A stretch of DNA of 61,874 bases, taken from a virus (lineage: Duplodnaviria > Caudoviricetes). The notes beneath the pieces were generated by a model, which saw only the letters and a program-made list of their open reading frames with translations, did no database searches and had not been told where the DNA came from. Below, piece after piece: positions 171-60,136 of this stretch. Position numbers and translations under genes: made by a program. Within the stretch, counting starts at the first letter, position 1; each line of letters starts with the position of its first letter. Where the stretch lies: IMG/VR virus record IMGVR_UViG_3300021404_000012, positions 1 through 61,874 of that record; one strand, 5' to 3'.

Positions 171-194
171 GTCGTCTCCACTACGGTAGTGGTC

Positions 195-413
195 ACGCTC
201 CACACTTGGGTTCTCGCTCCTGATCGGGCTCGCGCTCACCTAAGGGGTTCTCGCAAGTACGAGGGCTCGCGCATGAGGCTGGGTTCTCGCAGTTTAATGG
301 GCTCGCGCGTGGGGCAGGGTTCTCGCTGATTGTGGGGCTCGCGCATTGACTAGGGTTCTCGCAGTACAAAAGGCTCACGCCGCTCGTTGGGTTCTCGCCA
401 GCACTTTGGGCTT
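195..413 (-). ncRNA. TIGR-like dual-repeat guide array (6 units) downstream of the helicase
   Basis: Alternating GCGCGAGCCC and GCGAGAACCC(C) repeats separated by 8-nt variable spacers, 36-37 nt period. Confidence 0.9.
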
Positions 414-1970: not shown

Positions 1971-2279
1971 CTACACACTCCTGTTGCCCACTACCGTAGT
2001 GATCCATTGTTCCAGTTCCACTATCCGGTCGTAGCTGTTGATGACGAAGACGCGTGCGCCGCTCTGTTCAATCTCGCTTATTGTCATTTCCTGCATCGGG
2101 GTTGGCTTGCCACCAATCCGTTTCGCTTCGATCGCAAAGCCAAGTCCACAGCAGAAACCTATATAATCCAATGTCCTGCGTCCGTACCCTCCCGGCACCG
2201 GCATATAGGCGTACACATGCGGGCGGTAACGATCCAGCACCGCCTTGATCCCGCGCTTGATCTTCGTCTCTGGGGTCAT
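1971..2279 (-). CDS. VRR-NUC domain nuclease (putative Holliday junction resolvase)
   Basis: TPETKIK...LDYI...AIEAK..GGKPTPMQ PD-(D/E)XK VRR-NUC pattern. Confidence 0.85.
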   Translation of the reverse strand: MTPETKIKRGIKAVLDRYRPHVYAYMPVPGGYGRRTLDYIGFCCGLGFAIEAKRIGGKPTPMQEMTISEIEQSGARVFVINSYDRIVELEQWITTVVGNRSV

Positions 2280-7242: not shown

Positions 7243-7519
7243 CTTCACACTCCGTCTGTTCGCCCCGGTGAACCGTCAGTGGCACCGACATGCGATGATG
7301 TTCAAAGGAAACTTGGTAGTAGCCGGTCATGCCGTCTGTCGTCATCCCGACCACTTCAACACTGGTCTCGCCTCCCCAGTTTATTTTTGATAACTCGATC
7401 GCGAACGCCTCCGCTGCCTCCTTCATCCACTGCTTCACCACTACGGTAGTGGTTTGGTCGTTGGTGAAGCGCCAGTACGGCGCTTCACTTGGGTCGTAGA
7501 TGCCGGGGTCCAGGGTCAT
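7229..7519 (-). CDS. Hypothetical protein
   Basis: ORF in operon, ATGA coupling. Confidence 0.55.
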   Translation of the reverse strand: MTLDPGIYDPSEAPYWRFTNDQTTTVVVKQWMKEAAEAFAIELSKINWGGETSVEVVGMTTDGMTGYYQVSFEHHRMSVPLTVHRGEQTECEDAKL

Positions 7520-7707: not shown

Positions 7708-9098
7708 ACCGTGATCCTCACGGTGTCGCCCCACGGACCCTTGATCTCCGTGGTCGCGCACCAGATGACTGGGTACTTGGGCTCTTGCGGCCAGCTACTG
7801 GGCATCATGTCCGTGAGGTACACGAGGGTATCAGGAATAATATTTCTTTCAGACAACCACTCGAACGCCGGCTGGAACTCCGTGCCGCCGCCACCGGGCG
7901 AACCCTCCTGGCGGATATGCGACAGCTCGTCGAGGCTGCGCGCCTCGTCCACCCGCTGCACCTTGGCGTCGCACCACATGAGCATGACCCTTTTGGGCTT
8001 ACAATCATTCAGCACGCCGCCCACCTCGGCAAAGCACGCGGCGAGTTCCTTCTCACTAACCGAGCCGGAATTGTCCACGACGCACACCACCAGCTCGGCG
8101 CCGTAGCCGCGCCGCCCCGGCATATAGACCATCGGGTTTAAAACTATCCTCCTTCTGTTCGGGTGGTCCCAGGTTTCCCGCCGGTTGCCGACTTTACCGG
8201 TTAGAACTATTCTAATGTGTTCACGCCAGTTAACTTGCGGCTGGAGGATTTCGTCGATCATCCGCTTGATGTTCGCCGGCAGCTTGCCCGCCCGCTTCGC
8301 CGCCTGCTCGGCACGGGCGATGGCCTCCCGAAACTCGACCTCGTGCGGCACGTCGTCTACCCCCTGCCCATCGCGCTCGGGCGGCAGCACCTCGTCAAAG
8401 CGCCCGTTGTTCGCCTGGGCCTGCTTGTCGCGGTCGCCGCCCTTCTTGCCGGTCGCCTCGCCGTAGGTGTTCGGCCTAGGCAATTGCTGTTGCTGACCAT
8501 GTTGCTGACCACTGGCACTACCGGTAGTCGGCTGGCCTTCCTCATCGCTTTCCTCGTCACCCTGTCCACCTTGCGGCGGGCAATTCGGCTGCGGGATCGT
8601 CGGCACCGGCGGGGGAGGCGGCGGTGGGGGAAGTTTCTTGTAGAGCTTGACGTAGACATCCTCGGCCAGCTCGCTGGCCTTGATGTCGGGGTCGTACAGC
8701 CACGCGGGATTGCACGTCCCGATCTTGCTGGCCACGAGGTCGGCGTTGATCACGTAGTCCGCCGCCGTGTTGAACAGGTCCTGCATGAAAGGCAGCCCCT
8801 TCAGCTCGCCGGCCTGAAGGTAGTAGCGCATCCGTATCGGGTGCTTGTAGATGACGTGATACACCTCGTGCGCCAGGGCAAAGCACCGCTCCGTGGGCTT
8901 GAGCGTGGCGAAGTAGGCCGGGTTCACGAAGATGCGCTTGGCGTCCGTCGCGAGCGTCTTGATGGCGCGTGTCGGCCACATCTCCATCTTGTCGTAAAAG
9001 TAATACGAGAAGAACGGAGCGTAGATCACAAAGGAAGCCATGGCTTCCTCCATGATCCGCTGATCGGTGCTGTTGAGGGTTACTTTCGGCGGTAACAT
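7704..9098 (-). CDS. Metallopeptidase plus vWA domain protein (DUF2201-like)
   Basis: HEVYH zincin motif, Pro/Gln/acidic linker, VVDNSGSV MIDAS motif, GGGTEF, YLTD. Confidence 0.88.
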   Translation of the reverse strand: MLPPKVTLNSTDQRIMEEAMASFVIYAPFFSYYFYDKMEMWPTRAIKTLATDAKRIFVNPAYFATLKPTERCFALAHEVYHVIYKHPIRMRYYLQAGELKGLPFMQDLFNTAADYVINADLVASKIGTCNPAWLYDPDIKASELAEDVYVKLYKKLPPPPPPPPVPTIPQPNCPPQGGQGDEESDEEGQPTTGSASGQQHGQQQQLPRPNTYGEATGKKGGDRDKQAQANNGRFDEVLPPERDGQGVDDVPHEVEFREAIARAEQAAKRAGKLPANIKRMIDEILQPQVNWREHIRIVLTGKVGNRRETWDHPNRRRIVLNPMVYMPGRRGYGAELVVCVVDNSGSVSEKELAACFAEVGGVLNDCKPKRVMLMWCDAKVQRVDEARSLDELSHIRQEGSPGGGGTEFQPAFEWLSERNIIPDTLVYLTDMMPSSWPQEPKYPVIWCATTEIKGPWGDTVRITV

Positions 9099-10411: not shown

Positions 10412-10514
10412 TTGAGTTACTCCGGTTTCACTACCAGTAGTGGTGGGGGAAAAGCCGCATCGGCCTTTGCACTGGTTGGGACACTGGCTAAGCGTCCCGA
10501 ACCCGAGCCAGCAC

Positions 10515-11723: not shown

Positions 11724-11786
11724 CGTAGTCACACTCTCCACTACCGGTAGTCACCAGGGACAATCCCTGGTAACGCCCTGTGTATA

Positions 11787-11882: not shown

Positions 11883-11919
11883 CTGTCACCGACACTACTG
11901 GTAGTGGTGCCGGTGACAG
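11883..11919 (-). terminator. Hairpin closing the 3' end of the main guide array
   Basis: CTGTCACCG...CGGTGACAG stem enclosing a CACTACTGGTAGTG motif. Confidence 0.6.
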
Positions 11920-13372: not shown

Positions 13373-13405
13373 GTTGTTCCCTCCCACTTAACTACGGTAG
13401 TGGGA

Positions 13406-14506: not shown

Positions 14507-14529
14507 AACTACTACCGGTAGTGGGACTG

Positions 14530-15491: not shown

Positions 15492-15545
15492 TCTAATCCT
15501 CCACTACGGTAGTGGAGCGGCGGTTATCCCGCCGCTCCATTGGGT

Positions 15546-16166: not shown

Positions 16167-16256
16167 AGTCTGTCACCTTTCACACTCAGTTGATGCAGTC
16201 ACTACCAGTAGTGCTGCTAGCTGCCCACCGTCGTGGCGATGGGCAGTTGAGCAGAA

Positions 16257-16779: not shown

Positions 16780-16835
16780 AAGTCACACTCCTGAAAGTGC
16801 CGCCACTACCGCGTAGTGGCAGTGGCGGCGGTTTA

Positions 16836-17359: not shown

Positions 17360-17423
17360 CACTCACTCCACTACGGTAGTGGCGGTGAATAGTACCATCG
17401 TACTTTCACCGAACAAATCGTGG

Positions 17424-17603: not shown

Positions 17604-17688
17604 CTCGACCAACTCCAAAAAATAAATCGCCGACCACTACCGTAGTGGCGGTCCGTTCTCGGTACACGCAACCTGCGAGTAACGAGAT

Positions 17689-17899: not shown

Positions 17900-18480
17900 T
17901 AATTAGTGCCAACAATTCTAGGGTTGAGTTTAAAAATATCCTCGACTACTGGTAGTTGGTTGTAATGGCGTTTTGGCGAATTAGGACATATTTAAAAGTG
18001 GCGTAATTTCCTCATATAATATCAACGTCTCAAGTGCATTATTCCATTATTCCATAAGATTTTTCACCATAAGACCATACACACACCCCCAATCTCGAAA
18101 CGCATCGAATGTAATCGAGCACTCGATTTCACGTATCCTCTTGTGCGGAAAAACGGGGTAGAAAAGTGGAATAATTAGGCTAACCCCCTGCTATATATAT
18201 ATATATTATTCCATTTAAAATAAAATAATAATGGCCTAATTGCCGTCGCGCCGTTTGTTTACGGTTGACCGTGATCGTTCTCGGGATAGCATGCGTGACA
18301 ACTGGCATTAATCCACATCGGGAGCCCGCGCGAAATGGCTCAATGCCCTAATCCAGTCTCAGCGTGCATTAGGTATCGGTAGATTATTTAATGAAATCAA
18401 TGCGTTAAGATGCAATTGGCCGGTTACCCACGATAAAAACCCACATCAATTGATCCATGTCGCACTACGGGTAGTGGATC
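17900..18480. other. AT-rich non-coding region, candidate replication origin
   Basis: No credible ORF; (TA)n tract at ~18192-18206; repeated TTATTCCA and AATTAGG. Confidence 0.4.
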
Positions 18481-18553: not shown

Positions 18554-18572
18554 CGAGTGTGAGCGTCGCTGA

Positions 18573-19532: not shown

Positions 19533-19873
19533 GATTGCGAACTCACACTTTGGTTGTCGGGACGATGTTGTCCCATCAATGGCGAAGCTGATTTGAACTA
19601 CCGGTAGTGCCACCTTCACCGTCACAAAGTGACGGTGCGGACCTGGCCCTTGTGCATGATGCGTGCGTCATTATGCGTGCATCCCGTGCGCGTCACGAGG
19701 CTTCGGCCAGCCCCCGGCCCCGGTCTGTCCATGGCCCCCGGCCTGGCTCCCGCCGCCACCTGCAGCGCCTAGACGAGAGTGACCCAAAAAGTGAAGTTAA
19801 CTTTTATTAACGCCACTTCACCACTACGGTAGTGCGGTACGTCGCACCGGCAGCCCTAGGAACTGCCGGTGCC

Positions 19874-22323: not shown

Positions 22324-22342
22324 ATGGTTACTACCGGTAGTG

Positions 22343-24954: not shown

Positions 24955-25521
24955 TCATACTTCGACATCCTCAAACTCGGCGTCGTCCTCGTCGGGACGC
25001 AGCGAGATCGACTGCCGGGGCGGCGGGATTTCATCGGCTTCCACTACGGTAGTGGCGCGGTAATCCTTGCGGCCCCCGGCGAAGTTGATGGTCAGGTTGA
25101 ACGCGGCGCCGAGGGACTTTTGCTGCGCGTCCTTGGCGCCGGCGGGCGCCCCATCCACGCCGGCTCCCCTCTGGAATTGCTTAAAACCGTCGATCCGCTG
25201 CGCGATCGGTGTCCTCGGGTCGTTGATCAGCGCCGTCATCGGGATGATTAATTGTTCAGTGGCGTGCATGAACTTGTTGCGTATCCGCACCTCGGTTGCT
25301 TCGTCGCTCAAGTAGAGCGCCCGCAGTTTGCGCGCCTCGTAGACAATAACCGGGTGCAGCCGCAGGTATTCCTTGAGCGCATCCTTGCCGTCGAGCCCGT
25401 AGCGGTGGGCGATCGTCTCGGCGTCGTGCATCCCCATCGCGAGGTCGTACTGCAGCCGCAGTATCAGCGCGTCTTCCTGCGCCGGGTTCGGGTCGTAGAT
25501 CGAAGGATAAGGGCTGCTCAT
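24955..25521 (-). CDS. Probable terminase small subunit
   Basis: Immediately upstream of terL; N-terminal HTH-like region, FNLTINF strand, acidic tail. Confidence 0.65.
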   Translation of the reverse strand: MSSPYPSIYDPNPAQEDALILRLQYDLAMGMHDAETIAHRYGLDGKDALKEYLRLHPVIVYEARKLRALYLSDEATEVRIRNKFMHATEQLIIPMTALINDPRTPIAQRIDGFKQFQRGAGVDGAPAGAKDAQQKSLGAAFNLTINFAGGRKDYRATTVVEADEIPPPRQSISLRPDEDDAEFEDVEV

Positions 25522-30752: not shown

Positions 30753-30824
30753 GTCGAAAGTACGACCCTGGTACTTTTGTCACTACGGTAGTGGAGGGGG
30801 GCGACCCCCTCCCAGGAGGCCGGC

Positions 30825-35620: not shown

Positions 35621-37363
35621 TTGGTCGCATGGGAGATCAAGGGTATGGGGGGCGTGATCCCCCGGCAGGACGACCGTCTTATTGGCGACAATATGGCGGT
35701 GGAGGCGGCGAACTGCGACCTTACCGGCGGTCAGCTTGTTGGTCTCCCACAGGCCGAGCTGCAGATCGATCTCAGCGGCCAACTACCAGTAGTGGAGAGG
35801 GCTTATCGGTTTCCGCCCGACGACACCGGAGCTACTGTCTGGCTGCCGTTGCCTTCGCGCTACAGCTCCGTTGTCCGCTCGCCGCTGGCGAACGACGACA
35901 CGAACCGGGTCTACTGGACAAATCCCGGCGACCCGGTGCCGTGGTTCAACACGCGCGACCGCATCAAGGCGGGCCAGCCAGCCTATAATCTGGGTATCGT
36001 ACAGCCGACGACAGCGCCGTCGATCACCGACGTAACGGGTGGCGATACGACCGTACCGGCGATCGATCGCGCGTATGTCTATACATTTACCAATAGCTTC
36101 GGCGAGGAAACCTCACCCTCGCCGGCAAGCGCCATCGCGACGGGTCCGCCCGATGCGACGTGGACCGTTACCGGGTTCCCCACGGCGGCACCGGCTAATC
36201 CTGCGGGTGTGAATTACGCACCCATTACTAAGTATCGGATTTACCGGACGATCACCGGGCAGACGACCGGGGCGCAATTTTACTTCGTCGCGGAAGCGGC
36301 GCTGCCGAATGGCAATCCGACCTATGTTGACACTCAGCCGGACAGCACTGCGGTCTATAACGAGGTGCTGGAAACCGTGGGGTGGGGCAACCCGCCTTCC
36401 GGGCTCGACGGCCTGGTCGCGATGCCGGGTGGTTTTCTCTGCGGCTTCACCGGCAACACGGTGCATTTTACGGAGCCCAACCGCCCGCACACCTGGCCTT
36501 TCGTTTATGACCAGAGCGCGCACTACAAGATCGTCAACCTCGCGGTGTGGCAACAGTACCTCATGGTGCTGACGCAGGGTTACCCCTCGGCGGGCTCGGG
36601 CAATATGCCCAGCAACATCATCCTTGTGCAGTCTCAGGTCGCGGAGCCGTGCATCGCGCGGGGCTCGGTCATGGTCGATTTGTCGGGGGTTTATTACGCC
36701 TCGCAAAACGGCTTGGTTCTGTTCACCGGCTACGGGATGCAGAACATGACGGCGGGGGTCGTCGAGAAGAACGAGTGGCTCAACTACTATCATGCCGAGG
36801 ACTTGGTGGCGTGCCGGCACCGCGCGCAGTTTATGGCGGTCAACGGCACCGATCAGGGTTTCCTCATCGACTACGCGGAGGTGCGGCTGGGGTTCGAGGA
36901 CCTCACCACGCTAAAGGACGTGGTGTGCATCTGGAACGACGAGTACACCGGCGACACGCTGATGTGCGCGGACGGGCGCATCTATGAGTGGGATTGTCCC
37001 GATACGCCCCCGCAGGTTTACCGGTGGAAGTCAAAGCAATGGTTCACGCCGATGCCGCTAAGCCTTGGCGCGGCGCAGGTTGAGCTGGACCCGCAGATAT
37101 ACGACACAGCACCGACTGACCCGATCCCGCTCGACAATGGCGACCCGGCGATGCAGCTCCCGGCGGGGATCAACGCGCAGTTCCGCTACTACGCGGGGCC
37201 AAAGCTGACGTTGATTATGACCCGCAACCTGACAAAGCAGATGGAGATTTTCCGCCTCCCGAAAGGCTTTAAGGCGTTCGACCATCAGGCCGAAGTCCTA
37301 TCGCGTGTACCCATCTCGTCGATCCAACTGGCTTCAACGCTCACCGAATTAAAGGTGACGTGA
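35621..37363 (+). CDS. Tail nozzle/stabilisation protein
   Basis: 580-aa beta-rich protein; [34 protein letters not shown]. Confidence 0.7.
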
Positions 37364-39990: not shown

Positions 39991-40293
39991 ATGGCCGAGT
40001 ACAGCGACGTTCCCGAAATTAACTCGCTCTATGAGGAGCGGGAGAACCTCACCAACGGTATCGCCTATGTCGATGGCGGCGGCAGCATGACGTATTTCAC
40101 CATCGAAGCGGAACCGCCAGCGGAGGGCGTGGTCCTGACGATGCCGCAGGTGCCGGTCCGCGTCGTGATGCAGCCGCCGACGCCGCAAGCAACGCTCGAC
40201 AATATCCGGGCGTGGATGGTGCAGCGGCAGGCCGATATCGACAGTCAGTTGTCATTGCTTGGGGTTACCAATACCCCGGCAGCACTACGGTAG
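39991..40293 (+). CDS. Hypothetical protein, paralog of the previous ORF
   Basis: YSDVPEINSL...GGSM...LSLLGVT. Confidence 0.65.
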   Translation: MAEYSDVPEINSLYEERENLTNGIAYVDGGGSMTYFTIEAEPPAEGVVLTMPQVPVRVVMQPPTPQATLDNIRAWMVQRQADIDSQLSLLGVTNTPAALR

Positions 40294-40302
40294 TGGCGAC
40301 CG

Positions 40303-41857: not shown

Positions 41858-41906
41858 AAGTATGATGTTATTACTTTGATCCCACTACGGGTAGTGGAGA
41901 CGGTTA

Positions 41907-43340: not shown

Positions 43341-46300
43341 ATGCTAGCCACCGACGAATACAGTCGCAGCGACGACGATAGCGGCGATACGTCAGCGCCG
43401 GTGCAGTTGGCGATCGGTGGAGCCTTATCGTCGCCGACACCTCCACCCGCACCGCCGGAACCGCCATCGCCTGCGCCGGAACCGCCGTCGCCTGCGCCGG
43501 AACCGCCGTCGCCTGCACTGCCGCCTGCGCCGGAAGCGCCGCCGCCGCAAACGGCTATCGGCGGCGCGGGGCGCATAACCGGCATACCGCCATCTGAAAC
43601 GCCAGACACATCGACGATGCCGCCGCCGGTCACTACCGGTAGTAGCCAAGCCGCCGAGAGTGGCGTCGAGCGTTCACTCAGCGCCGAGCCGCAGTCGCTT
43701 CAGGAGGTCATGGGTTCGTCCGGCCACCCACCGCCGGCGATCGGCGAGAAGCCGCCGCTAGTGCCGCACACGCCCCGGCTCGAACCGCCGGTGCAGCGGT
43801 ACAAGGACCTTGAGAAATCGGACCCCCAGCTATTCGACCAGATCAACCGCATCGCCGACATAAGCGGCGTGCCCCGGCGCGACCTCGCAGCAGTCGTCTA
43901 CGCATCGAGCAACAACGACCCGAACGCGCGCAACGGGAACCGGGTCGGGTACGGCGGGCTCACCCCCGACGACGCGCGGTGGGTTGACCCCGACGGGGCG
44001 ATGAACCCGGCGGACCCGATCGATAACCTGTTTATGACCGCCGAGAAACTGAAGCGGTTGGGTGATCAGTTTGGCCGGGGCACCCCCGAGCAGTACGCCG
44101 CCTACTGGGCCGGCGGCGATCGGGTCAAGTCGATGCTGACCCGGCACCCGGACGACCACGCCGATATCGCGCCGCCGGGGACGTTCAACTTTGTCAACCG
44201 GGTCGTGGGACGACCGGAGCCGCACGACGACGGTCAGAAGTCGTCGGATATGCCGGCGTGGATGGCGCGCACCCAGGAGGCAACTGCCGGCGCGGAACAG
44301 ACCGGTCAGTTGGCTACCGGTGCGCAGATGCAGGATGTGCCACCGGGCAGTCTTGACCCGTGGTGGAAGCGCGGCAGCGATGCGGTGAGAGGCGCCGTGG
44401 GGAGCGCGGTGCAGACGGCAGAGCAGTTGCCACAGGCTGTCGGCGCAGCCGTGCAGCCGACGTTGGATCGTGTCGCCCAGGCAAATAAGGACCTCGTGCA
44501 GTCTGCGGTGCAAGGCCAGCAAGCCGCCGGCCAGATGGTGCGGGACGCTGCGGGGAACGTGGTCGGGGCCGCGCAGCAGGTGCCGTCGATCATCGAGCAG
44601 GCGCCGCAGGCGATTGGCAACGCGATAGCAAAGGCTGCGGAAGTTATCCGCGACCCGGCACAGCTTGGTGCGTTTGCGGCGGATACCGTGCGGCAGGCCG
44701 GAACGGCGCTCGCATCGGCGGCGACTGGTGCCGCTGGCGTTGCCCAGCGGGATATCCAGGGCGCGGGCGAAGCGGTGGCTCCGGTAGCGCAGGCGGTTGG
44801 CGACTACGCCAGTAAGTTTGTCCAGGGTGCGTCGGGTAATTATGGCGGCGGCGCTGATAACCCGCCACCGGCGGCACCGGCGGCACCGGGTGCGACGGGG
44901 ACGATGACCGCTGGTGGCGCGCTGCCGTTTCAGCCGTCACCGGCGGCGCCTGCACCGCCGCCGAAGCCAACTGGGCTCATCACGCCAGCGCAAGCAGCGG
45001 GACCACCTCCGCCGCCTGCGGCAGCGCCTCAACCTGTGCCCCCTATCGCGCAGGTTGCGCCAATCGTACCAGAAAAGCCGAGCGCGGCGATCGGCGCTCC
45101 GCCTACTACCGGTAGTGGTTCCGGTGCCGCTCCTACGAGCCCGCCTGTTGGGGGTGCGGGTTCGCAACCGACGGGGGCGACCACTGGAGGCGCGGCACCA
45201 TCACCTCCCGCCGCGCCACAAGCCGGCGCCGCACCCGCGTCAGGTGCGGCGCCGGCGGTGGGGGCCAATGCCCCGACCCAACCGCCGATCACCTCGCTCC
45301 CCGGCGGGCCGAGCCACATCACGCCAGGGGGTGCGGTGACCGCTGCCGCGAATGGCGGGGCGGACGGGGTGCTGACCTACATCGTCGATCACGGTGCGCC
45401 GGGGGCATCCACCGGGCAGAACTGGCGCAACCTTGAGGGTTCGCTTGCGGCGATGATGATCGCCAAGGGTGACATCACGGGTGCGCAGCACGCGCACGAA
45501 TACGTATACCAGCTCCAGCACGCCGGGATGTTTGAGCATTTGAAGAATGCCTACAACGCGATGCGCGTTGGTGGTGACGTTGGTCTGCGACAGGCGGCGC
45601 AAGAGCTTGCGGTCAGCCATAGTTTCGCGACAGACGGCGCGATGGCTGGGTTCCAGATCATCAACGGTAAGCTCTACGTTCAGCGGTTTAGTGAAGACAC
45701 CCATCAGCCGTTAGGTAAGGCGACAGAGGTTGGCTTAGAGAATATCCGGGGGATGCTGAACATCACGGCTGACCCGAAGACGTTTAACGATGTTCTGAAC
45801 TCAGAACGGCAGACCAACAATACGCTCGAACACAACCGCGCGACGGAAGGTGAGGCGGTTGAAGAACGACTTTCTAAGGAACGCATCGCCGACATGCGGA
45901 CGAAAGAGGCCAACACGCGAGCCGAGTTGCAGAGGCAGGCGGCGGATGAACGCGCCAGACTGCAGCGTGAACAAACTATGGGCATCCATCAGGATGAGCA
46001 GCGGGCTCAAACCATTGCCGAGTTGAAGGCACAGCGCGCCGCCGCGATAAAGGAAGCTGACGGGGTTTATGGCGATCTCGCGCCGGCGCCTGCAGTTGAT
46101 GTCACCGGTAGGCAAATGACGCCCGAGCAGCGCCAACAGGCGCAGACGGCTTATGTCGGTGTTCGGACCCACGCGCCCGATATTCCGACACTGATGGCGC
46201 AAGAGGTCGCCAAGAGCATGATCGCGCCGCCGGGTACGAAGGGCATCAGGTTCACCGCGACCCCGGCCAAGGATCAGAGCGGCACGCCGCAGATGGTCAT

Positions 46301-46426: not shown

Positions 46427-49400
46427 ATGGCTGCCGCTTACGACGACGACGAAGACGATGAAGACGATTTTGAGGAGACTACGGCGCAGAGCAGCGACGA
46501 GACTGATCCCGGTTCGCTTAGGTCCGCGCTGCAACCGGCACAGCCCCAGTACAGCCCCCAAACCGAGCCCACGGCTGAACCCGAGCCGACGCCTGAACCG
46601 ATAGCGCCGACGCCGGGTGCGGCTCCTGCATCGGAACCGGCGCCGGCGGCGGCTCAACCGGCAGCGCAACCGCCGCTGCAACTGCCCAAAGGGTGGACCG
46701 CCGATCCCGACGCCCAGCCGGTTTACATCAATCAGCAGCCGGCGGAGGAACCGGCACCCGAGGCCGGTTACCTATCTTCGGCGTGGGGTGGCTTACTCAA
46801 GGGCGGCGCGCAGGAGGTCGAGAAACTCGCCAACCTCACCGCGACGGGGATGCGCAAAGTCGGTAGCTGGACCGATCAGGACTGGGCCAAGAGCGGGGCC
46901 GACTGGCTCGACCAATCGACAAAGGGCTTGTCCGAAGCCGCTGCTAAAAATGCTCCAGTCGGTGACCTGTCAGTCAAGGATGCTTGGGACAAGGGTGTCA
47001 TCGGGCCTTGGATCACCGAGAAGGCTGCCGAGGGCGTCCTGCCATTGGCGGAACTCCTGGCGCTTGGGCGGTTCACAGGCCCGTGGGGGCCGATCGCCTA
47101 CGGCGCGGCGGTGGGCGCGGATCGGGAAGGGCGCCGCCCCGGCTCGACCCCTGAGAGTATAGGCGCGGCAGCGGCTGAAGGCGGGGTTATGTTCGCCGCG
47201 CCGCTTGGCCTGCAGAAGACCACTGAAAATCTCGGTCTCTTTAAGCGCGTCATCGCTAATGTTCTGGGGATGGGCGGGCTTGGCGCGGCTGGCGAGTACA
47301 CCGCGCCCGTACCCGAGGCGGTCGCCACCGGCACCTACAAGGCACCGACAGGCGAGCAGGTCGCGACGGGTGCGGCTACGGGCGCAGTTCAAGGCGCACC
47401 GCTCGCGGCGATGGGCGGACGCCGCGCACCGGAGACCCCGGCGGCGAATGAAGACCCGGCGGTCAAAGCCGCGACCGATGCAGCAGTAAATCCCCAGACC
47501 GTGCCAAATGACCAGGCCGTGCCACCCAATACGCGACCGGTGCCGCCTGGTGCTCCGCCAGGTGTCGATCAGCCGATGACCCCTACGGGGATGCCAAGAG
47601 TTACAGTTCCGACAGATACTGCGCCGCCGGTCGACACCAACCCGCTGCGCGCACGGCAGCAGGGGCTTGGGCAGGGCTACCAGACAACCCCGTCGGACTT
47701 CGCTGCCGGGGGTGCGACGACGACCCCGGCGCCGGATGCAACGGGTCGGGTACGCGGGCTGGGTCCGGCGACGCCGGGTATCGATCCGGCGGCAGAGGCG
47801 GCGCTCGCCGCGACGATGCCGCAAGGCCAGGAACCGCCGGCTAATACCCGCCCAGCACCGCCGGGTCCGCCGGCTGGTGTCGATCAGCCGATGACGCCGC
47901 CGGGGATGCCGCGTGTCGCGCCAACCGAACCCGCCGCGCCGCCCGCAAACCCGCTGCGCGCACGCCAGGAGGGGCTGGCGCAGGGGCCGACGACGCCAGC
48001 GAATTTTGCCGCCGAGGGGACGATCCCGCCGACGCCGCCCGACGTGAACGCGCCGGTGCCGCGTGTGCGCGGGCTTGGCCCGACACCGCCACCGGTGGAA
48101 GCGGCAGATCAGGCGCCGCCTAACGAGCGCCCGGTGCCGCCGGGTGCGCCCCCCGGTGTCAATGAGCCGATGGCACCGGGTGGGATGCCGCGCGTGACGC
48201 CACCCGAACCGGCTGCGCCAACGGAGCCCGTCAATCCCCTGCGCGAGCGGCAGCGGTTCCCCGAGCAGCCGACGACGCCGGCAGACTTCGAGACCGAGCG
48301 GCGCATCCCGACCGCGCCCAGCCCCGAGGAGTTGGAGCCGCCGGGAGGTCGCACGATCCGTCGCTACACAACGGAGCCCGACCACGAAAACCCAGACCAG
48401 CATGTGGCGAAGGACGAGGCTGGCAACGTCGTCGCGCTGGGTAGTACGCCCGAGATAGCGGTCGAGATGGCGCGAGCGCGGGAAGCAGCGGAGGCGCGCG
48501 AGGCTGCTACTGCTCCCACTACCGTAGTGGAGCCGGCGGCTGCACCGGCTGAACCAGCCCCGGTGGCACCGGCTGAACCAAAGGCATCGGCCAAAGCCAG
48601 GGCTAAGGGCGCAAAGATCACCCCCGCCGCTGCCGAGGTGCTCGACAAGGCGGAGGCTAAGCAGGCCGCGCCGGCGCCAGCACCAAAGGCCGCGACCGGC
48701 GAGGCGAAGGCAAAGCCTGCCCTCGTGGAGCTTGTCAGGAAAAGCCTGGGCGTCGGGAAGTCCAAGCCGGTCGAGACCACGGCGCAGACCACGCAGCGTG
48801 GCGAGACGCCCGCCGAACGTAGCGCGCGGATTGCTCGCGAGGTGAGAGCCGATGAGCGCGAGGCCAAACGTATGCCCGCAACGGCGACACCGGCGACGCG
48901 CGGTCTGGAGGATGTCGGCGGGCGTACCGCAGAGGAACAGGTCGAGCGCGTGCCGACAAGGACGCGTGAAGTGCAGACAGTTGCCGAGGCCGAGGGCCGC
49001 GAGACCAGCGAGCTGAAGTCCGATCAGCGCGCTGCCTCGACAACGAGCCTCGCGCTCAAGGCAAGCGATCTGCTGCACGACCATCTGGAAGGCCGGCTCA
49101 AAGACCCGATGGATATTTACGACCGTTACGGTGAGCCGAACGAAGGACGCGGGGCGCCGCGCAAATACGACACCTTCCTCGACTGGCTGAAGGACCGCAT
49201 CAAGACCGCCAAAAACCCCAAGGCGATGGAGGCGATCAACCGCGAAGCGGAGGAACTGAGGACCGACAAGACACTGACACCGGGTCAGCGCAACACGTTG
49301 ATCAAGCGACTGGCTGACCGGCTGCTTACGGAACGCGGCGCGCTCGACAAGATGAAGGCGATGCAGAAGGCGATCGAGATCGGGCTGAAAGAGCGGGCGA

Positions 49401-52400
49401 AACCGGGCGCGAGCGTCTCAAAATCCACGTCGGCGCTGGACAAGATGAAAGCCGCCATCGCGGCGCGCAAGCGGGGTGACAAACCTGCGCTGATGCCCGA
49501 CATGCCGACCGATGCTGCGGAAGTTGTTGCAAACGCGCAACGGCATGGGGTGAACGCGCCGATCGCGAAGCGGCTGGTCGAGAGCTATAAGCGGAATGTC
49601 GGTTTCGACATTCACGATTTTCTCGATGATGTCCTCACCAACCCGCACGCGATGGCGGACACGCCGCACTTCTATGAGCTGGCGCGGATGCTGAAGAACC
49701 TGCCGCGCGGCGCGGTGCGGGTGGCGGAGTGGGGTGTCGCCGGTCAGGACCCGTCGATAAAGGCTGGCGGGTTTTACCTTCACGACCTCATCGGGCTGAA
49801 ACTTGGTCAGTCAGGCGACGCGTCGCATATCGAGGCGCTGCTGCACGAGGGTACGCACGCCGCGACCTTTCACTTTTTAAGTGATATCGGTGACCGCATC
49901 GCGGCGGAGAAAGCCGGCGACACACCTTGGCCGAGGCCGGTGACGCCAGAGGAACGCCGTGTTTACGGCGCGATGCAGGCGTTGCAGCGCGAGCTTAACC
50001 GGATGCTCAAGAGCAGCGCGTCGCGCTCAGACATCGAGAATTTCTACACGCACTACGCGGCTCACGGTGGGCCAAGTCCCTTAACCGAGATGCCTACGAT
50101 GCTGATGACGAACCCGCACGCGCAGGCGTGGGCGCGGCGCACCGCACCGAGCAGGACGCTCAAAGCCGAGCTGACACGCCTCGGCATGGCACCCGAAGAA
50201 ACGACGACCGTGTGGAGCAGCTTTAAGAACGCGGTCCGCCGGATGTTTGGCGGACGGCCTGGGAGTGACAACGTACTCGAATGGGCGCTGCGCCCTCTTA
50301 CCGAGAGTGTCGATACTGGGATCAAGTACCGGGCAGAATACCCCGGTGTCTACGGCGAGGAATTTCCTTCACGGGTTGGCAGCGTCGCGGCGGCGTTGCG
50401 CGATGCCGAGACGAGGGATACCACAAGCCAGCGTGAGCTGACCCGTCAGACCCGCGAGCGGCTGACCGACGCATTGCCCGATCCCGAGGCGCGGCAGCGG
50501 CTGCAGAACTTTGGCGACCGGGTGGCGTACCTGAAGTTCAACAGCACCGACGACCTCAAGACGGCGCTGCGCAGGGCGAAAGGTGACAACCTTAAAACTC
50601 TGCGTTCCCTTGGGCTGCCCAGCATGTCCACGTCGTCGATCGCGCAGTATTACCAGCGTGAGGCGCCGTTCGCGGATGGCATTCGTGACCTGCGTGGTAA
50701 GATGCAGCGGGCGCAGCAGGAGGTGATCGCGAGGCACGGGGATCAGGTGCGCGACTGGTACAAGCAGTTGAAGAAAGCCGGCAATGATTTTGGTGACTTC
50801 CTCAACAATGTGACACTGGCGAAGGCATCGATCGGGCACGCCGATTTCGATGCGCGCAACGCCCACCTCAACGCCGACGAGCTGAAGGTGGCGCAGGGGC
50901 TGCAGCAGCAGTACGAGGCGATGCCGCGTCATCAGCAGCAGCTCTATCAGGAGCTGCGGGACTTCTACCTCGAACGCGGCTGGGCCGAGCGGCACGCGGC
51001 GGCTGACTACGCGATCGACATGGGCCTGTCGGGTGGCGAACACCCGATCACCGACGAACAGCGCGCCCAGCTCAGGCGCATCCTGCGGTCAAAGACCGAG
51101 CTGGATAACCTCCTGCGCAATCCCGACAGCAGCGACTACGCCAGGTCGATGGGCGAAGCCTGGGCTCAGAACGGGGCGATGACCAAGGAAATCCTGCGGA
51201 TGCACCGCCAGGGGTGGATCGATGGCGACTACTTCCCGCTGCGCCGCTATGGCGACTGGATCGTCACCACGGGCGATCCGCTGAACCCGCAGGAGACCGG
51301 GCACGCCGTTCACTTCTTTGAGCGGTCGAGCGAGGCCGAGGCGTTCCGCGACGGGCTTGAGGCTGAAAAGACCGAGCCCGGTCAGCCCCGTATGAAAATC
51401 TCGCCGGTCATCCAGAAGGCGACGCACGCCGCCGGCTACGAGGCGCTGCGGGGCGTGCTTCCCGAGCGGATGCTGGCGCAGTTCGAGAGCGCCGCGACCG
51501 CGCGGGGGATGAACGAGGAACAGCGGTCAACCGCGCGCGACGCGCTCGCCGGGACGCTGATGCACTACCTGACGCAGAGCCAGGGGGCGCGGCTGAACCT
51601 CAAGCGGCGGGGTGTGGCCGGTGCGTCCAGCGACGCCGGCAAGGTGCTGGCGAACGAGCTGACGACCCATGCCGCGCGGATGGGGTTCCTGTCGCACGGC
51701 GCCGAGGAGAACATGGCGTTTGGCAACGCCGAGCGGTACGTGAAGAACTTGCAGCAGGCGCGCGCACCGGCGACCGCCGACGAGATCGCCGCCTCGCGCC
51801 AGCGGCTCAACGAGGCCGAGGCGAAATTCAAGGCTGGCGATCCGGCATACAGCCGCGCGGAGATCGAGGACCTGCGCCAGCAGCACGCGTGGCTGGAGAA
51901 GCCGCCCTCGACCGCTGACCAGAACGCGGCACGGTCGGTGCTCGACGAGCTGAAGGCGCGGCGCGGGCCGATCGACGGCGACGAGAGCACGAAGTGGCTG
52001 GGCGCGGGCGCCAGGGGCTTCACTACCGGTAGTTTCATCTACCACCTTATCCGTCCGGCGCAGATGCTCTACCAGACACTCGACGCGCACGCCAACGCGC
52101 AGGCGTTCCTGGGCGGGCGGTTCGGGCAGGCGCGCGCGGGTGCCGCGCTGGTGCGGGCACTCAAGGATATCGGGCCGATGGGGGTTGGCGGAACCGTCCG
52201 CAACTCGTTCCGCGCCGCACACGGCGCGATGAAGGAGAGCGACTGGCACTTCTCTGACATGTTCGAGAAGAAGCTGGCGACGCTGTTTCAGGGTCCAAAT
52301 GTGACTAAGGAAGCAGCCGCTGCAAAAGCGAAGGCGCTGATGGACGCGGCGAACGATCGCGGCCTGATCAACATGAGCCAGATGCGCGAGCTGCAGCGCA

Positions 52401-54641: not shown

Positions 54642-54791
54642 GTGGTGTTATCGCCGTTGGCGATCCACCTCGCCAACGTATCGCCGGGACGGCTCAGTAA
54701 CGGAACACGTCTCCGTGTTTTGACGCTGGCGCGCTGGGCGCTCGAAATCCTCATCATCGCTGTGCTGGTTTTAGCGGCCCACTACGGGTAG
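54642..54791 (+). CDS. Small membrane peptide (49 aa)
   Basis: GGGAGG RBS, GTG start, C-terminal TM helix. Confidence 0.35.
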   Translation: MVLSPLAIHLANVSPGRLSNGTRLRVLTLARWALEILIIAVLVLAAHYG

Positions 54792-54823
54792 TGGCTGGCC
54801 CATAACAAACATCTGAACAGGAG

Positions 54824-55467: not shown

Positions 55468-55644
55468 TCACGCCGCCAGCGACTGGATGTACTCGATGGG
55501 CGACGTGGTGATCAGTCGCTTCTTGCCGGCTTTGACCGAGGCGATCGTACCGGCATTGATGAGGATGTAGACGTAGGTCTTCGACAGGCTGGTTTGTTCA
55601 GCCCAATCGCGAACGGTCCAGGCGACAATCGGGGGGGTTGTCAT
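55468..55644 (-). CDS. Excisionase (MerR/AlpA-like HTH)
   Basis: TVRDWAEQTSLSKTYVYILINAGTIASVKAGKKRLI; adjacent to the integrase. Confidence 0.8.
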   Translation of the reverse strand: MTTPPIVAWTVRDWAEQTSLSKTYVYILINAGTIASVKAGKKRLITTSPIEYIQSLAA

Positions 55645-57230: not shown

Positions 57231-57241
57231 AAGAATAATTT

Positions 57242-60136
57242 TTAAGGGCTATTTGGCGGCTGCTTCGTAGGCCGGGGGCGGATCGGAATGACGTTGGTTC
57301 CAGCCGGCACTACCGTAGTGGGAACCCCATTGAGGATGTGGATAAGGTCGGGGTGGTTCAGGTCCAGCTCGACGTAGTTCACCCTGCCGTTGGTGCGCCA
57401 ACGATCACCCGCGCCGATCATGCCGCGCAGCGTCGGCCCGACTGCGCCATCCGCTTGCCAGCTCTCGTGCATCAGGCGGAAGACCACCATAGGCGATTTA
57501 CCTTGCTTATAGAGCCATACCTTGAACACGTCCTTGTCAAAGCGCAGCTTGCCGTCGTGGGTAGCAATCTGCGTGCAAGGTGCGTCGCGCGCGACGCCGT
57601 GCGGATACCGCCCACGGGGATCGTTGCCATGCGGACTAGCCCCCGGCTTCGTCTTGATTTCCTCGGTGACGATCAATCCGTTCTGGTGCGCAACGAGGTA
57701 TTCGTCGAGCACGTCGGTCAGCCGGATGCCGTCCTTACCGGGCTCGATCTCGGTGCGCTCCTGGCGTGATGTGGTGATCGCCCGCGCGAGGACGCGCACG
57801 ATGCCGGGAACATCGAACGTCGGGACTAGGCCAAGCTGCCGCGCGATGGCGGCACCGGCGACGATGCTTTTTGCCATGCTTAGATGAAAGCGTTCCTCCG
57901 GTCCGTAGGACCCGATCGCGTTGACGATGATGATGCCGGCCTTATCAAGCAGCGCCTTTACCTGCGGCTGGTGGGTCGCGATATACTGCGCGTACACCCG
58001 ACCTGCGTGTCCGTAGTTGTGCCTGAGCGGGGCTATGCGCGTCTCGGCCTGCGGGTCGCCGGCGTACTTGTGGGTCAGCTCGATCTCCAGCACACGCAGC
58101 AGCGTCGCGGACCTGTAAGTATGTTGGGCGGCGATCAGCTCGGTGATGCTGGCGTTCGCCGCCAGGGCGTAGATCGTCTCCCAGGTCCCTTGCTCGCGCA
58201 TACGGATGTCGCTCGTCAGCCGCCCCTTCTCGCGGCCTTGGGTGAGGGTATGCAACAACTCGAACGCTTTTTCATAGCTGTCCTTATTGACCATCGCCTC
58301 ATCCCAATACTGCGGAAGCGAGCGCGTCTGGCCGAGGCTTGCCATCTTGAAGTTCTCGGTGTCGGACAGCGACATGAGGTTTGTGAACTCGCTCCACACC
58401 GTCGTGCTGACGCGGAAGACGGAGGTTTTGCCGACGCCCGAGCGCCCGTTGAACGCGATGCAGCCGCCGGTCCCGCCGGCAAGTTCCATCAGCGGCGCAC
58501 CGAACGACAGCGCCAGGGCGACGTGCAGCTCCGGTACGCTGTCGATGACAAAGGCCGCGATGTCGCGCCACACGTCGAGCTTACCGACAGGCGTGTAGCG
58601 CGCCATCAGAACCTGATCGGCGCCGGCGGTATTATGCTCGACGCCATCGTGATTGTAGAAGCATCCACCGACAGCGAACCCGTCGTACTGGGCGTTGTGC
58701 AGCCAGCCGAATGTCGGGAGCGCCGCACGCGCCGCGCACGCGCCCATCAGCTTTTCGATCCATCCCATCAGCATCCTCGTAACGTTGAGCCAGTTGTCCC
58801 CCGAAACCAGTAAGCCTCGCTTGGCAATCTCGGCGCACCGCCGGTCAGTCAGCTCGGACCATAAGACATGCAGGTTGTCGATGACCCTGCCACCCGGCTC
58901 GGCGTAATCAAACGCGATGCGCTTGTCGCCTCCGACATACTCGACGCGCGGCCCCCTGATGTCGCCGGCTAGGAGCCGGTGCCATTGTTTATCCCGGTAG
59001 ACCTCGAACCCGTCAGTGCTGCGCCGGTATCCGTCCGGCGGTTCGTCGGGGCTGACGATCGCCTGCGCGGTCGCGAGCCCCAGCGTGAATGGGCTCTTGC
59101 CCTGCTGGTGCAGCGGGCAGCCGGTGCAGACGCCGGAGCGCTCGGTGTCGAAGTAAGCGCAGGTCGTCGCGCCGAAATTTTTGCGCTGGTGTTCCTGATC
59201 GATCCGGTCGAACTCGGCATCGGTGTCGTCAGGTTTGTAGTCAGTATGCTGCTCGCCGAGCTTGTGAGCCCAGTCGCGCCCGTCTTCACAAAAGAAGGCG
59301 AGGGTGAGCATCCCGCGCCAAAGCTGCCGCCCGTCATGCTCGCCACCCTCGGCCAGCGAGCGCGCCACCTGGGCGCAGCGCTGCGAGATCACGGCGAAGT
59401 CGCGCGGCGCTGCCGTGAGCCCCGCCTTGGCGTTCGCCGCCATCGAGGTTGCGGCCCGCTGGAACGCCGTCGCCGGTCGGCCACTACCGGTAGTTGGAGC
59501 CCAACCCAAGCTTCTCAATAAATCGTTGCGATCATAATCCGGCGCCGGTTTGGAGATCATTAAACAGGGCGCCGGGTTAGCGGGGATTTTGTAGTTGAAG
59601 GTCTCGATCGGGCGCAGGATGCGCGCCGCGTCGGCAACCACGCTGGCATCGCCCTTGACCCCGTGCGCGATGAGCGCGGCCTTGAGCGTCTCGGCGTGCG
59701 GCTGCCACTCGTCGCGCGTCATCGGCGGGTCGAACGTCCAATAGAGATGCACGCCATATCCCGATCTGACCCACACGTTAGGCAGCAGGATGCCGGTCGC
59801 CTTGCACATGGCGGCGACGCTGGCCTTCAGCTCGTTGAGGTCCTTAGATGCCTTGGCCGGGTCCGTCTTGCCGCCGCCAATTAAATCGGCGTCGAACCAG
59901 AACGCCCGCAACGCTTCGGCGTTTATCTGGAGACGGCGCTTCTTGGTGAAGGACGCGACGGCGAACCAAACATCGAACCCCTCGCTTGATTTCTGTTCAC
60001 AGAAATCGGCGGCAAGCTGGATGTCGGTGCGGGAAAACGAGGTTTCAAAAAAACGCGCGGGCTTACGTTGATACGCAACGACAATGTAACGGCCCGGCGG
60101 TATTATTCGATCAAGAAAACTGCTCAGAGGTGTCAT
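57242..60136 (-). CDS. Primase-helicase with DUF927 domain
   Basis: FDAD, SGYGVHLYW and RILRP primase motifs; Cys cluster; GRSGVGKT; WDE; QGREKGRL. Confidence 0.88.
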   Translation of the reverse strand: MTPLSSFLDRIIPPGRYIVVAYQRKPARFFETSFSRTDIQLAADFCEQKSSEGFDVWFAVASFTKKRRLQINAEALRAFWFDADLIGGGKTDPAKASKDLNELKASVAAMCKATGILLPNVWVRSGYGVHLYWTFDPPMTRDEWQPHAETLKAALIAHGVKGDASVVADAARILRPIETFNYKIPANPAPCLMISKPAPDYDRNDLLRSLGWAPTTGSGRPATAFQRAATSMAANAKAGLTAAPRDFAVISQRCAQVARSLAEGGEHDGRQLWRGMLTLAFFCEDGRDWAHKLGEQHTDYKPDDTDAEFDRIDQEHQRKNFGATTCAYFDTERSGVCTGCPLHQQGKSPFTLGLATAQAIVSPDEPPDGYRRSTDGFEVYRDKQWHRLLAGDIRGPRVEYVGGDKRIAFDYAEPGGRVIDNLHVLWSELTDRRCAEIAKRGLLVSGDNWLNVTRMLMGWIEKLMGACAARAALPTFGWLHNAQYDGFAVGGCFYNHDGVEHNTAGADQVLMARYTPVGKLDVWRDIAAFVIDSVPELHVALALSFGAPLMELAGGTGGCIAFNGRSGVGKTSVFRVSTTVWSEFTNLMSLSDTENFKMASLGQTRSLPQYWDEAMVNKDSYEKAFELLHTLTQGREKGRLTSDIRMREQGTWETIYALAANASITELIAAQHTYRSATLLRVLEIELTHKYAGDPQAETRIAPLRHNYGHAGRVYAQYIATHQPQVKALLDKAGIIIVNAIGSYGPEERFHLSMAKSIVAGAAIARQLGLVPTFDVPGIVRVLARAITTSRQERTEIEPGKDGIRLTDVLDEYLVAHQNGLIVTEEIKTKPGASPHGNDPRGRYPHGVARDAPCTQIATHDGKLRFDKDVFKVWLYKQGKSPMVVFRLMHESWQADGAVGPTLRGMIGAGDRWRTNGRVNYVELDLNHPDLIHILNGVPTTVVPAGTNVIPIRPRPTKQPPNSP

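Follow-up and report, generated by a model that had tools for sequence, protein, structure and literature searches.

The genomes of Cluster O mycobacteriophages (Corndog and its relatives) carry more than 30 copies of a 17-bp dyad repeat, which has invariant arms of 7 bp and a variable centre of fixed length (3 bp); the function of these repeats was left open, and the authors predict that dimeric DNA-binding proteins attach to them, in a role other than the control of initiation (PMC4351075). The stoperators of Cluster A phages are bound by the phage repressor, which stops transcription elongation (PMC6550527, PMC9283540); they lack symmetry, and the repressor that reads them is a monomer with two domains (PMC9283540). 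The start-associated sequences (SAS) of Cluster K phages are asymmetric 13-bp words containing the ribosome-binding site (RBS), present in 11-19 copies of which nearly all have one orientation, and their function is likewise open (PMC3203893). In this work we describe the palindrome ACTAC-N1-2-GTAGT in the IMG/VR record IMGVR_UViG_3300021404_000012. The window is the complete record of 61,874 bases, which is classed as linear and has a completeness estimate of 98%. The record is from a temperate soil phage whose gene content is podovirus-like and which has relatives among phages and prophages of Proteobacteria. The palindromes are genuine, strongly selected, lineage-specific sites on duplex DNA, and they belong to a known but unexplained kind, the dispersed dyad repeats of phage genomes. 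With a probability of about one half, they are operators or roadblocks scattered over the double-stranded DNA, at which a dimeric, sequence-specific protein encoded by the phage binds.

Thirty-three exact copies of ACTAC-N1-2-GTAGT were found in the window, 14 with a one-base (N1) and 19 with a two-base (N2) centre, whereas dinucleotide-preserving shuffles (n=100) contained 0.02 copies on average and one at most. The first-pass annotation of this DNA had reported more than 30 copies spread over the genome, inside genes as well, and this description proved accurate: the word is strongly enriched, and all 34 listed positions hold the motif, give or take 0-3 bases. The additional copy, listed at about 16803, has three central bases (ACTACCGCGTAGT, 16805-16817) and the same CC/GG flanks as the others. 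The centres are also those listed in the annotation (G, C, CG, GG, CA and TG), namely G or C in the N1 sites and CG, GG/CC or CA/TG in the N2 sites. The word is exact, as only one variant with a single mismatch was detected (at 41007), which is about the chance level. Inverted half-words separated by zero, four or six to eight bases, as well as everted and direct arrangements of the half-words, were at or near zero in the window, and the sole match with a five-base spacer represents an overlap with the site at 14511.

The symmetry of the word extends into its flanks. C and G flank the word on its two sides in 20 of the 33 window copies. For a larger sample, 87 sites were pooled from the window phage (designated G000) and from its three nearest relatives, G002, G003 and G008 (the other G and L labels denote records and loci of relatives) and were oriented by the strand of the nearest mapped gene, so that the orientation is approximate. 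In this set position -1 is C in 76 sites and position +1 is G in 77, and C at -2 and G at +2 are present in 58 sites each. The symmetric unit is therefore CCACTAC-N1-2-GTAGTGG. Outside ±2 a bias was seen on the downstream side only, toward A and G: GGAG follows directly in 25 of the 87 sites (about 30%), its GG being shared by the palindrome and the Shine-Dalgarno sequence, whereas CTCC directly upstream was found in 3. The central bases are unbiased with respect to the sense strand (C 21 vs. G 15, CA 5 vs. TG 3, GG 4 vs. CC 3). A mobile mini-element was rejected, because the flanks are not conserved beyond ±2.

The location of the sites was determined relative to our own heuristic list of 79 genes, which covers 90% of the sequence and leaves 9.8% non-coding. 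About 18 of the 33 copies fall into this non-coding fraction (binomial P about 1e-10). With the same heuristic gene calls, about 12 sites are situated 7-37 nt ahead of a start codon; five lie within approximately 50 nt of a terminator-like hairpin, one is between convergent genes, and seven are crowded into a low-G+C divergent region at 16.2-19.8 kb. The start-proximal copies, together with the excess of GGAG on the downstream side, agree with the earlier statement that many copies precede an RBS. Every module contains sites, and both gene strands are represented. Between 12 and 15 copies are located in genes, two each in the genes of the 2397-aa and the 1027-aa proteins, the primase gene and the gene at 28766-29785. 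Eleven of the 15 in-gene copies are read in the frame ACT-ACN-..., which yields the peptides TTVV or TTGS noted in the first-pass annotation. The codons used are rare in this genome (ACT, 10% of Thr; GTA, 6% of Val; AGT, 10% of Ser), and several of the in-gene copies are found in Pro/Gly/Ser-rich, linker-like stretches.

A sigma-70 type promoter was considered as the identity of the word and rejected: six of the approximately 12 start-proximal sites are only 7-18 nt from the start codon, a gap that leaves no space for a transcription start plus an RBS, and few predicted promoters are nearby. Two places where copies occur deserve mention. The 970-bp stretch 17604-18572, which contains no called gene and three motif copies, lies in the lowest-G+C part of the genome. 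Both of its strands have sigma-70-like promoter matches, several in all, its right edge is marked by a strong terminator-like hairpin, and no Rfam match was obtained; it might serve as a control region or an origin or encode a non-coding RNA. The 476-aa virion-module gene at 41907-43337(+), which is preceded by a motif copy and GGAG, has no homologue in nine relatives compared.

Scanning of the collection with the 15-mer form of the site yielded 52 stretches. Counted over whole records, the ACTAC word is present in 20 copies in G002 (62.9 kb), 21 in G008 (50.5 kb), 13 in G003 (17.8 kb), 7 in G004, 6 in G007 and 3 in G011, and the reversed control pattern in 0-1 copies in the viral records of this type. 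These six records represent syntenic relatives, whose capsid proteins are 65-88% identical to that of the window phage. The word also occurs in L097, a contig of a betaproteobacterial metagenome-assembled genome (MAG). Many sites occupy orthologous places. The gap after the capsid gene is occupied in G000, G008, G002, G004 and L097, and the Rhizobium phage described below has its own palindrome there. Further such places are the end of the gene before the helicase gene, the gaps before and after the ATPase gene and, inside genes, the terminase-neighbour gene, the gene at 28766-29785, the DUF2201 gene and the primase gene. At least one relative has an aligned copy for 7 of the 15 in-gene or gene-end sites, with a local protein identity of 29-71%. 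Some of these copies are displaced by a few codons or are read in a different frame, and the N1 and N2 forms interchange at orthologous places. Taking into account that copies are kept in place despite protein divergence and frame shifts, these observations show that selection acts on the DNA word and not on the peptide. The word picked out by the annotation in a single genome is thus conserved in six syntenic relatives, often at the same places.

Within the wider group the word itself is subject to turnover. G004 and G007 have one-base centres only and tolerate changes in the arms (G004 contains 7 exact sites and 25-26 sites with one mismatch). G001, whose distance from the window phage is similar to that of G004 (polymerase 53% for both; capsid 68% for G001 and 65% for G004), contains no ACTAC sites. 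Its word is ACTCC-N0-1-GGAGT, present in 22 copies, many of them directly before an ATG. G001 (L160-L163) has terminal repeats and possesses neither the winged-helix gene discussed below nor a detectable integrase. Most of its first ten sites are followed by an A-rich spacer and an ATG about 7-10 nt on, which suggests that the right arm, GGAGT, is itself the ribosome-binding site. The cultured Rhizobium phage RHph_TM3_14A (MN988472.1; L073/L165) has neither the ACTAC nor the ACTCC word. It carries 59 sites with at most two mismatches from GTTACCT-N3-4-AGGTAAC, where about 0.25 were expected; according to the deposited annotation half of them are intergenic and half are in genes. In this palindrome the inner arm positions vary most. 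Literature searches on the names of the Rhizobium phages found no published description of these repeats. Candidate words were also found in prophage-like loci, TGCTC-N2-4-GAGCA in seven copies in L074 and TAACC-N2-GGTTA in three copies in L087. L115, a MAG contig of a magnetotactic candidate bacterium, contains 18 copies of GTGCG-N4-CGCAC and 9 of GTGTG-N4-CACAC in 21 kb around a related capsid gene; these repeats may be an array of another kind.

The word of G001 and the downstream GGAG raise the question whether the sites are an extended conserved context of translation initiation, comparable to the Cluster K sequences, with the in-gene copies as by-products. In G001 the word contains GGAG and stands about 7-10 nt before the ATG in most of the first ten sites, in the pooled set GGAG adjoins the word on the downstream side in 25 sites against 3 with CTCC upstream, and SAS are 13-bp repeats at translation starts, half of which have inverted repeats upstream (PMC3203893). 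In contrast to SAS, which are asymmetric and have one orientation (PMC3203893), the word studied here is palindromic and orientation-free. Moreover, inspection of the flanks of the 12-15 in-gene copies revealed no in-frame start after them, in-gene copies are conserved in relatives, and non-coding copies are also found past terminators and between convergent genes. A role of this kind is very improbable.

In four alphaproteobacterial genomes with related capsid genes the ACTAC core word was absent, and the reversed control was present in 46, 27, 7 and 15 copies. Of 401 genomes from the order to which one of the capsid-bearing genomes belongs, 7 contained the 13-14-mer, each in a single copy. 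This scarcity will be partly due to the ordinary avoidance of TA-containing words in G+C-rich genomes. A word that is frequent in the phage and nearly absent from the bacterial genomes searched would suit the marking of the phage's own chromosome, at about one mark per 2 kb. The marks would be recognized by the small terminase when it packages self DNA, by the primase/helicase in priming or loading, or by a site-specific nickase. It would be compatible with such a function in DNA metabolism that sites are present in all modules and on both gene strands, that they persist in relatives without a detectable integrase, and that their spacing is somewhat more even than random. The latter was true for four of the six genomes tested, with coefficients of variation of 0.69 in G000 (P 0.016), 0.47 in G008 (P 0.0002) and 0.71 in the Rhizobium phage (P 0.003), but not for G004 or G001. 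Even spacing would anyway be expected of sites tied to gene boundaries. Furthermore, known priming and nick signals are typically asymmetric, and no nickase or obvious site-specific nuclease was found in the phage, only VRR-NUC-like and exonuclease-like genes. We consider this explanation unlikely. A target of restriction or methylation was rejected: a spacer of two different lengths speaks against such a target, and among the proteins scanned, which did not comprise all small open reading frames (ORFs), there was no methyltransferase.

The first-pass annotation had argued that the variable centre fits a hairpin with a loop of 3-4 nt better than a rigid dimer site. Such a hairpin, in RNA or single-stranded DNA, would have the stem CCACUA/UAGUGG and would function before the RBS as an element of processing, stability or translation control, read by a stem-recognizing protein. 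The chief point for it is the one-base play of the spacer, which is seen in the window phage and in the relatives' own palindromes; being common to all lineages, this play is a property of the system. The approximately 12 start-proximal sites, the GGAG following 25 of the 87 sites and the vicinity of several sites to terminator-like hairpins would also be in line with a hairpin. However, for the invariant 11-12-nt core no hairpin is predicted (dG 0). With flanks of 4 nt the mean is -4.2 kcal/mol, and 7 of the 33 sites do not form the motif hairpin. The loop has no sense-strand bias, 12-15 sites are in genes and distant from starts, and there was no Rfam match.

Changes in the arms are also difficult to reconcile with a stem. 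Twenty-five N1 sites of G004 have one changed arm position. Two changes in one arm were found in 15 sites (6.6 expected) and changes in both arms in 8 (7.7 expected), of which only 1 was compensated; 23 of the 25 broken pairs are non-wobble and cannot pair on either strand. In the Rhizobium phage 2 of 14 double-arm changes are compensated, and the 68 broken pairs comprise 28 unpairable, 20 sense wobble and 20 antisense wobble pairs, i.e. there is no sense-strand G-U bias. A search for related loci with an alignment of the four closest sequences returned only contigs of the same lineage, which are not independent with regard to covariation. The half-sites thus vary independently, which fits two protein-contacted half-sites on duplex DNA and not a stem. 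On this evidence the argument from the variable centre is not supported, and a hairpin is quite improbable. A structured RNA or an element resembling the repetitive extragenic palindromic (REP) hairpins was likewise dismissed, as neither G004 nor the Rhizobium phage shows compensatory or wobble changes that would preserve pairing to the extent expected of such an element, and no Rfam match was obtained.

Most sites are found within long genes, between cistrons or in 5' leaders, away from predicted promoters. Stoperators and the Cluster O repeats are distributed in a like manner, and therefore dispersed operators or roadblocks on transcription are the function that we favour. Of the candidates named in the first-pass annotation, stoperator-like protein sites remain the best fit, even though the hairpin argument given along with them was not supported. 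In the mechanism that we envisage, each site would consist of two half-sites, (CC)ACTAC, that point toward one another with one or two base pairs in between. Sites would be placed where an exact word of 15-16 bp costs least, that is in the short gaps that separate genes and where long genes have tolerant linkers; in the gaps the outer GG would often double as the start of the RBS sequence GGAG, and in the genes rare codons would be used. When bound by protein, the sites would most likely act as dispersed operators or roadblocks, which would damp or time transcription through the long operons. The protein proposed to bind them is the MarR-like winged-helix protein encoded at 21609-22133.

About 70 of the 79 gene calls were scanned with the profiles of at least one library. 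These searches revealed three DNA-binding candidates only, the Cro/CI-type helix-turn-helix (HTH) protein 54830-55192, the excisionase-like HTH_17 protein 55468-55644 and the zinc-ribbon protein 16257-16502. The protein encoded at 21609-22133 matched no Pfam family at E values up to 0.05 and no PDB sequence below E 0.79. Its AlphaFold2 model (mean pLDDT, the predicted local distance difference test, 78; ten-residue blocks over residues 21-100 mostly 85-96) shows a winged helix-turn-helix with a long C-terminal helix, and the best Foldseek matches in the PDB are MarR-family regulators (E about 1e-3, probability 1.00, TM just 0.3-0.5). The protein is thus predicted to have a MarR-type winged helix-turn-helix fold. 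Homologues are encoded in G008, G002, G003, G004 and G007, and a homologue cut by the contig end is encoded on G016:C125, a contig with ACTAC-W-GTAGT. The MarR-like protein is present in 7 of 7 ACTAC-type lineages in which the region is covered, and 7 of 7 viral-contig loci encoding a homologue are on motif-carrying contigs; no homologue was found in G001, the Rhizobium phage or the L074 genome. G000 and G008 share the same predicted recognition helix; G002 and G003 have a similar one, and it differs in the two genomes with one-base centres only, G004 and G007. These features make the MarR-like protein the best candidate for the binder. The Cro/CI-type protein was discarded as a general binder. 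Among the relatives searched only G008 has a homologue, thus this protein is unlikely to serve all phages of the ACTAC type.

Several observations weigh against dispersed operators bound by the winged-helix protein. A rigid dimer would not usually accommodate half-site spacings that differ by one base. Few of the sites overlap a predicted promoter, hence classical operator action is not indicated. G004 and G001 (rated 100% complete) have sites but no detectable tyrosine integrase, which means that the role cannot be prophage silencing alone. The 25 sites with GGAG directly downstream leave room for a role in translation start, and the gene calls and strand assignments on which the locations depend are our own heuristics. 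As to the binder, the co-occurrence of winged-helix protein and ACTAC word is confounded by shared descent and corresponds to one or two events, and G001 has no detectable homologue although its ACTCC-N0-1-GGAGT looks like a one-base variant of the word. The homodimer prediction for the 21609-22133 protein (score 0.23, mark 0.42) is evidence neither way.

A text search of the literature for the word, supplementary files left aside, led to a 2026 study of NrdR boxes; the other matches were only immunoglobulin sequences and primers. The phage sites could be single NrdR-box-like words, which titrate the host repressor NrdR as phage DNA replicates and thereby raise host ribonucleotide reductase and the supply of deoxynucleoside triphosphates. 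If true, this would be titration of a transcription factor by a viral genome, for a phage without a reductase of its own. The N2 form with its flanks fits C4, A6, T11, G13 and c2, a3, t14, g15 of the 16-bp box. ACTAC-AG-GTAGT is part of the natural nrdAB box 2 of E. coli (PMC13584703, Table 1), the A39C mutant of this box contains ACTACCGGTAGT and still binds with a dissociation constant (KD) of 127 nM, and NrdR binds boxes of distant species (PMC13584703). In addition, the phage has no gene for the large subunit of ribonucleotide reductase. On the other hand, NrdR sites consist of two boxes 15-16 bp apart (PMC13584703), whereas no minimal partner box is enriched at 31-32 bp in the 87 sites, and the one pair (28904/28945) is 41 bp apart. 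The pattern C4/A6/T11/G13 with 8 bp from C to G is fitted by the 19 N2 copies but not by the 14 N1 copies and the N3 copy. There are 7 bp between the critical C and G in 14 of the 33 copies (42%) and in nearly all copies of G004 and G007, and in the single reported test this spacing lost binding (PMC13584703). The A6C change, as it occurs in the G001 word, cut affinity more than 20-fold, and the AT content between C4 and G13 is 50% here vs. 63% in the published boxes (PMC13584703). The words of G001 and the Rhizobium phage misfit the box, and the rare bacterial copies (5 genomes) are not beside reductase genes. No phage-encoded NrdR was found in 5 genomes. Two defining features of NrdR sites, paired boxes and location at a reductase promoter, are thus lacking, and the titration of NrdR is the least probable of the explanations considered.

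The positions of all sites and of the two candidate binders are given in the table.

Table. Palindromic sites and candidate binding proteins in the window (N1, N2 and N3, number of central bases; central bases of N2 sites in parentheses)
Feature	Position	Strand	Context
N1 site ACTACGGTAGT	180..190		CC/GG flanks; GGAG and ATG 9 nt off on - strand
N1 site	1990..2000		final 19 nt of VRR-NUC-like gene 1971-2279(-), 21 nt before helicase start; same place in G008, G002
N2 (GG) site	3250..3261		codons 6-9 of exonuclease-like gene 2599-3276(-)
N1 site	7440..7450		within 7229-7519(-); same place in G008
N2 (CG) site	8517..8528		within DUF2201 gene 7704-9098(-); same place in G003, nearby in G002
N2 (CA) site	10430..10441		intergenic, 18 nt before start of 9491-10411(-); gap also occupied in G002, G003, G004
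N2 (CG) site	11740..11751		intergenic, 7-16 nt before ATPase gene 10515-11732(-); gap also occupied in G002, G003
N2 (TG) site	11894..11905		non-coding or within doubtful 34-aa ORF
N1 site	13391..13401		18 nt before start of 12485-13372(-); about 40 nt past terminator-like hairpin 13470-13443
N2 (CG) site	14511..14522		non-coding; adjoins two-way terminator-like hairpin 14472-14498
N1 site	15503..15513		11 nt before start of 15282-15491(-); with flanks, perfect 19-bp palindrome
N2 (CA) site	16201..16212		34 nt before start of 15546-16166(-)
N3 variant ACTACCGCGTAGT	16805..16817		CC/GG flanks; between 16504-16779(-) and 16836-17006(-)
N1 site	17370..17380		non-coding
N1 site	17636..17646		32 nt before start of 17424-17603(-); downstream of promoter-like 17720-17693(-)
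N2 (TG) site	17945..17956		in 970-bp non-coding stretch 17604-18572
N2 (GG) site	18464..18475		about 50 nt past terminator-like hairpin 18554-18525(-)
N2 (CG) site	19597..19608		divergent region, 64 nt before start of 18573-19532(-)
N1 site	19823..19833		divergent region, ahead of rightward operon with winged-helix gene
MarR-like winged helix-turn-helix protein (predicted), 174 aa	21609-22133	+	candidate binder; start codon may be 21546
N2 (CG) site	22330..22341		between convergent 21609-22133(+) and 22343-22630(-); just past hairpin and T-run
N1 site	25043..25053		within 24955-25521(-), gene upstream of large terminase; same place in G002, G003; shifted in G008
N1 site	28904..28914		within 28766-29785(+); G008 and G007 have a site at the same place, G002 a remnant with one mismatch
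N2 (CG) site	28945..28956		within 28766-29785(+), 41 nt past site at 28904
N1 site	30782..30792		30 nt past major capsid gene stop, 32 nt before 30825
N2 (CA) site	35782..35793		within internal-virion-protein gene 35621-37363(+); same place in G008
N1 site	40284..40294		over stop of 39991-40293; 8 nt before start of 40303-40758(+)
N2 (GG) site	41884..41895		followed by GGAG; 11 nt before start of 41907-43337(+); gap also occupied in G008
N2 (CG) site	43632..43643		within ORF 43341-46424(+), or 66 nt before alternative start 43710
N2 (CG) site	45105..45116		within 43341-46424(+), Pro/Gly/Ser-rich stretch
N1 site	48518..48528		within 2397-aa gene 46427-53620(+)
N2 (CG) site	52022..52033		within 2397-aa gene 46427-53620(+)
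N2 (GG) site	54781..54792		37 nt before Cro/CI-type HTH gene 54830-55192(+); G008 site precedes its homologue too
Cro/CI-type HTH protein, 120 aa	54830-55192	+	Pfam HTH_3, E 7.9e-13; beside excisionase-like and integrase genes; second, weaker candidate binder
N1 site	57309..57319		within primase/helicase gene 57242-60136(-), 67 nt from its end; G008 site 69 nt from end
N2 (CG) site	59483..59494		within primase/helicase gene, 642 nt from start; nearby in G008 (682, another frame) and G002 (705)

The genes of the window are directed leftward at 1-19.6 kb and 55-61.9 kb and rightward at 19.9-54.8 kb, where only the terminase block at 22.3-25.5 kb is leftward. Their products include a helicase and a primase/helicase, a family A DNA polymerase, an ATPase, a DUF2201 metallopeptidase/VWA-like protein, the large terminase, the portal, the major capsid protein and tail fibre proteins. 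An integrase-like gene is located at 55705-56916, adjoined by the genes of the excisionase-like HTH_17 and the Cro/CI-type HTH_3 proteins. Among isolated phages no relative of the window phage was found at the nucleotide level. The sequencing runs listed for it were all of soil-metagenome DNA, with a best share of words of 0.23, and no RNA run was among them. By capsid protein (61%) the nearest isolates are the Rhizobium phages RHph_TM3_14A, TM27A/B and TM29, and a capsid-protein scan of bacterial genomes gave only prophage-like loci with 57-64% identity (Rhodospirillales, Bradyrhizobium, Xanthobacteraceae, Pseudolabrys and others). Rfam and tRNA scans of the window gave no match.

The window also encodes two large proteins, of 1027 aa and 2397 aa (the latter of virion type). 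The 2397-aa protein (46427-53620(+)) resembles a DarB-like antirestriction PHROG family in its C-terminal 380 residues only, and the 1027-aa protein (43341-46424(+)) has a weak transglycosylase SLT match. Both are kept in all relatives but are fast-evolving, with 26-56% identity over partial lengths. The 71-aa protein encoded at 23244-23459(-) has an above-cut-off match (E 9.8e-8) to Pfam PF24729, the Acb2/Tad1 hairpin domain, which is found in phage proteins that sequester defence signalling nucleotides; G004 encodes a 66% identical homologue. In the early region, of the products of 13795-14409(-) and 14823-15278(-), one has a bacterial sugar transferase domain and the other a HAD phosphatase domain of the polynucleotide kinase-phosphatase type; neither has a homologue among the relatives compared.

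Among the systems described, the Cluster O repeats are the closest case. Both sets are genome-wide, comprise more than 30 inverted repeats and have invariant arms with a short variable centre; many copies are intergenic, with about one third in genes in Cluster O and about 18 non-coding and 12-15 in genes here. In both, the repeats have no meaningful orientation relative to transcription and are mostly off promoters. The sites described here differ in sequence, host phylum and virion type, in having a core of 5 bp (7 bp with the flanks) and a centre of 1 or 2 bp (once 3), in that the word changes between related lineages and many sites abut an RBS, and in the presence of an integrase. The C1 operators of P1 and the conserved inverted repeats of phiC31 are cases in which one repressor serves many operators scattered over the genome; those sites are promoter-associated, unlike most of the sites here. 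Stoperators are oriented relative to transcription, whereas the phage site and its flanks are symmetric and orientation-free, and relatives without an integrase have the sites, too. What the stoperators share with them is the occurrence of tens of near-identical short sites in the gaps and genes of a temperate phage (PMC6550527, PMC9283540). The SAS and extended SAS (ESAS) of Cluster K are similar in being short conserved repeats directly before some start codons, tied to gene families across phages (PMC3203893), but the repeats of the window phage are palindromic, stand upstream of GGAG or share two bases with it, and are present in 12-15 copies in genes. NrdR boxes resemble the phage sites in that they are partially palindromic, their conserved positions are matched by the N2 form and one natural E. 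coli box contains the phage core; NrdR boxes are paired and have 8 bp, whereas the phage sites are single, have 7 bp in 42% of the copies and are not found at any reductase gene (PMC13584703).

The present set offers useful handles: the word is held at orthologous places amid protein divergence, it is replaced in sister lineages, and one putative DNA-binding protein tracks the ACTAC form. Together with the cultured phage RHph_TM3_14A and the 59 copies of its own word, these handles open the function of such repeats to direct tests. Sites that prove to be roadblocks or self-marks would represent a general means by which a phage controls or labels its whole chromosome with one protein. Dispersed near-invariant palindromes had previously been described in a few actinobacteriophage clusters, and repeats of the same kind are now found in an unrelated phage family.

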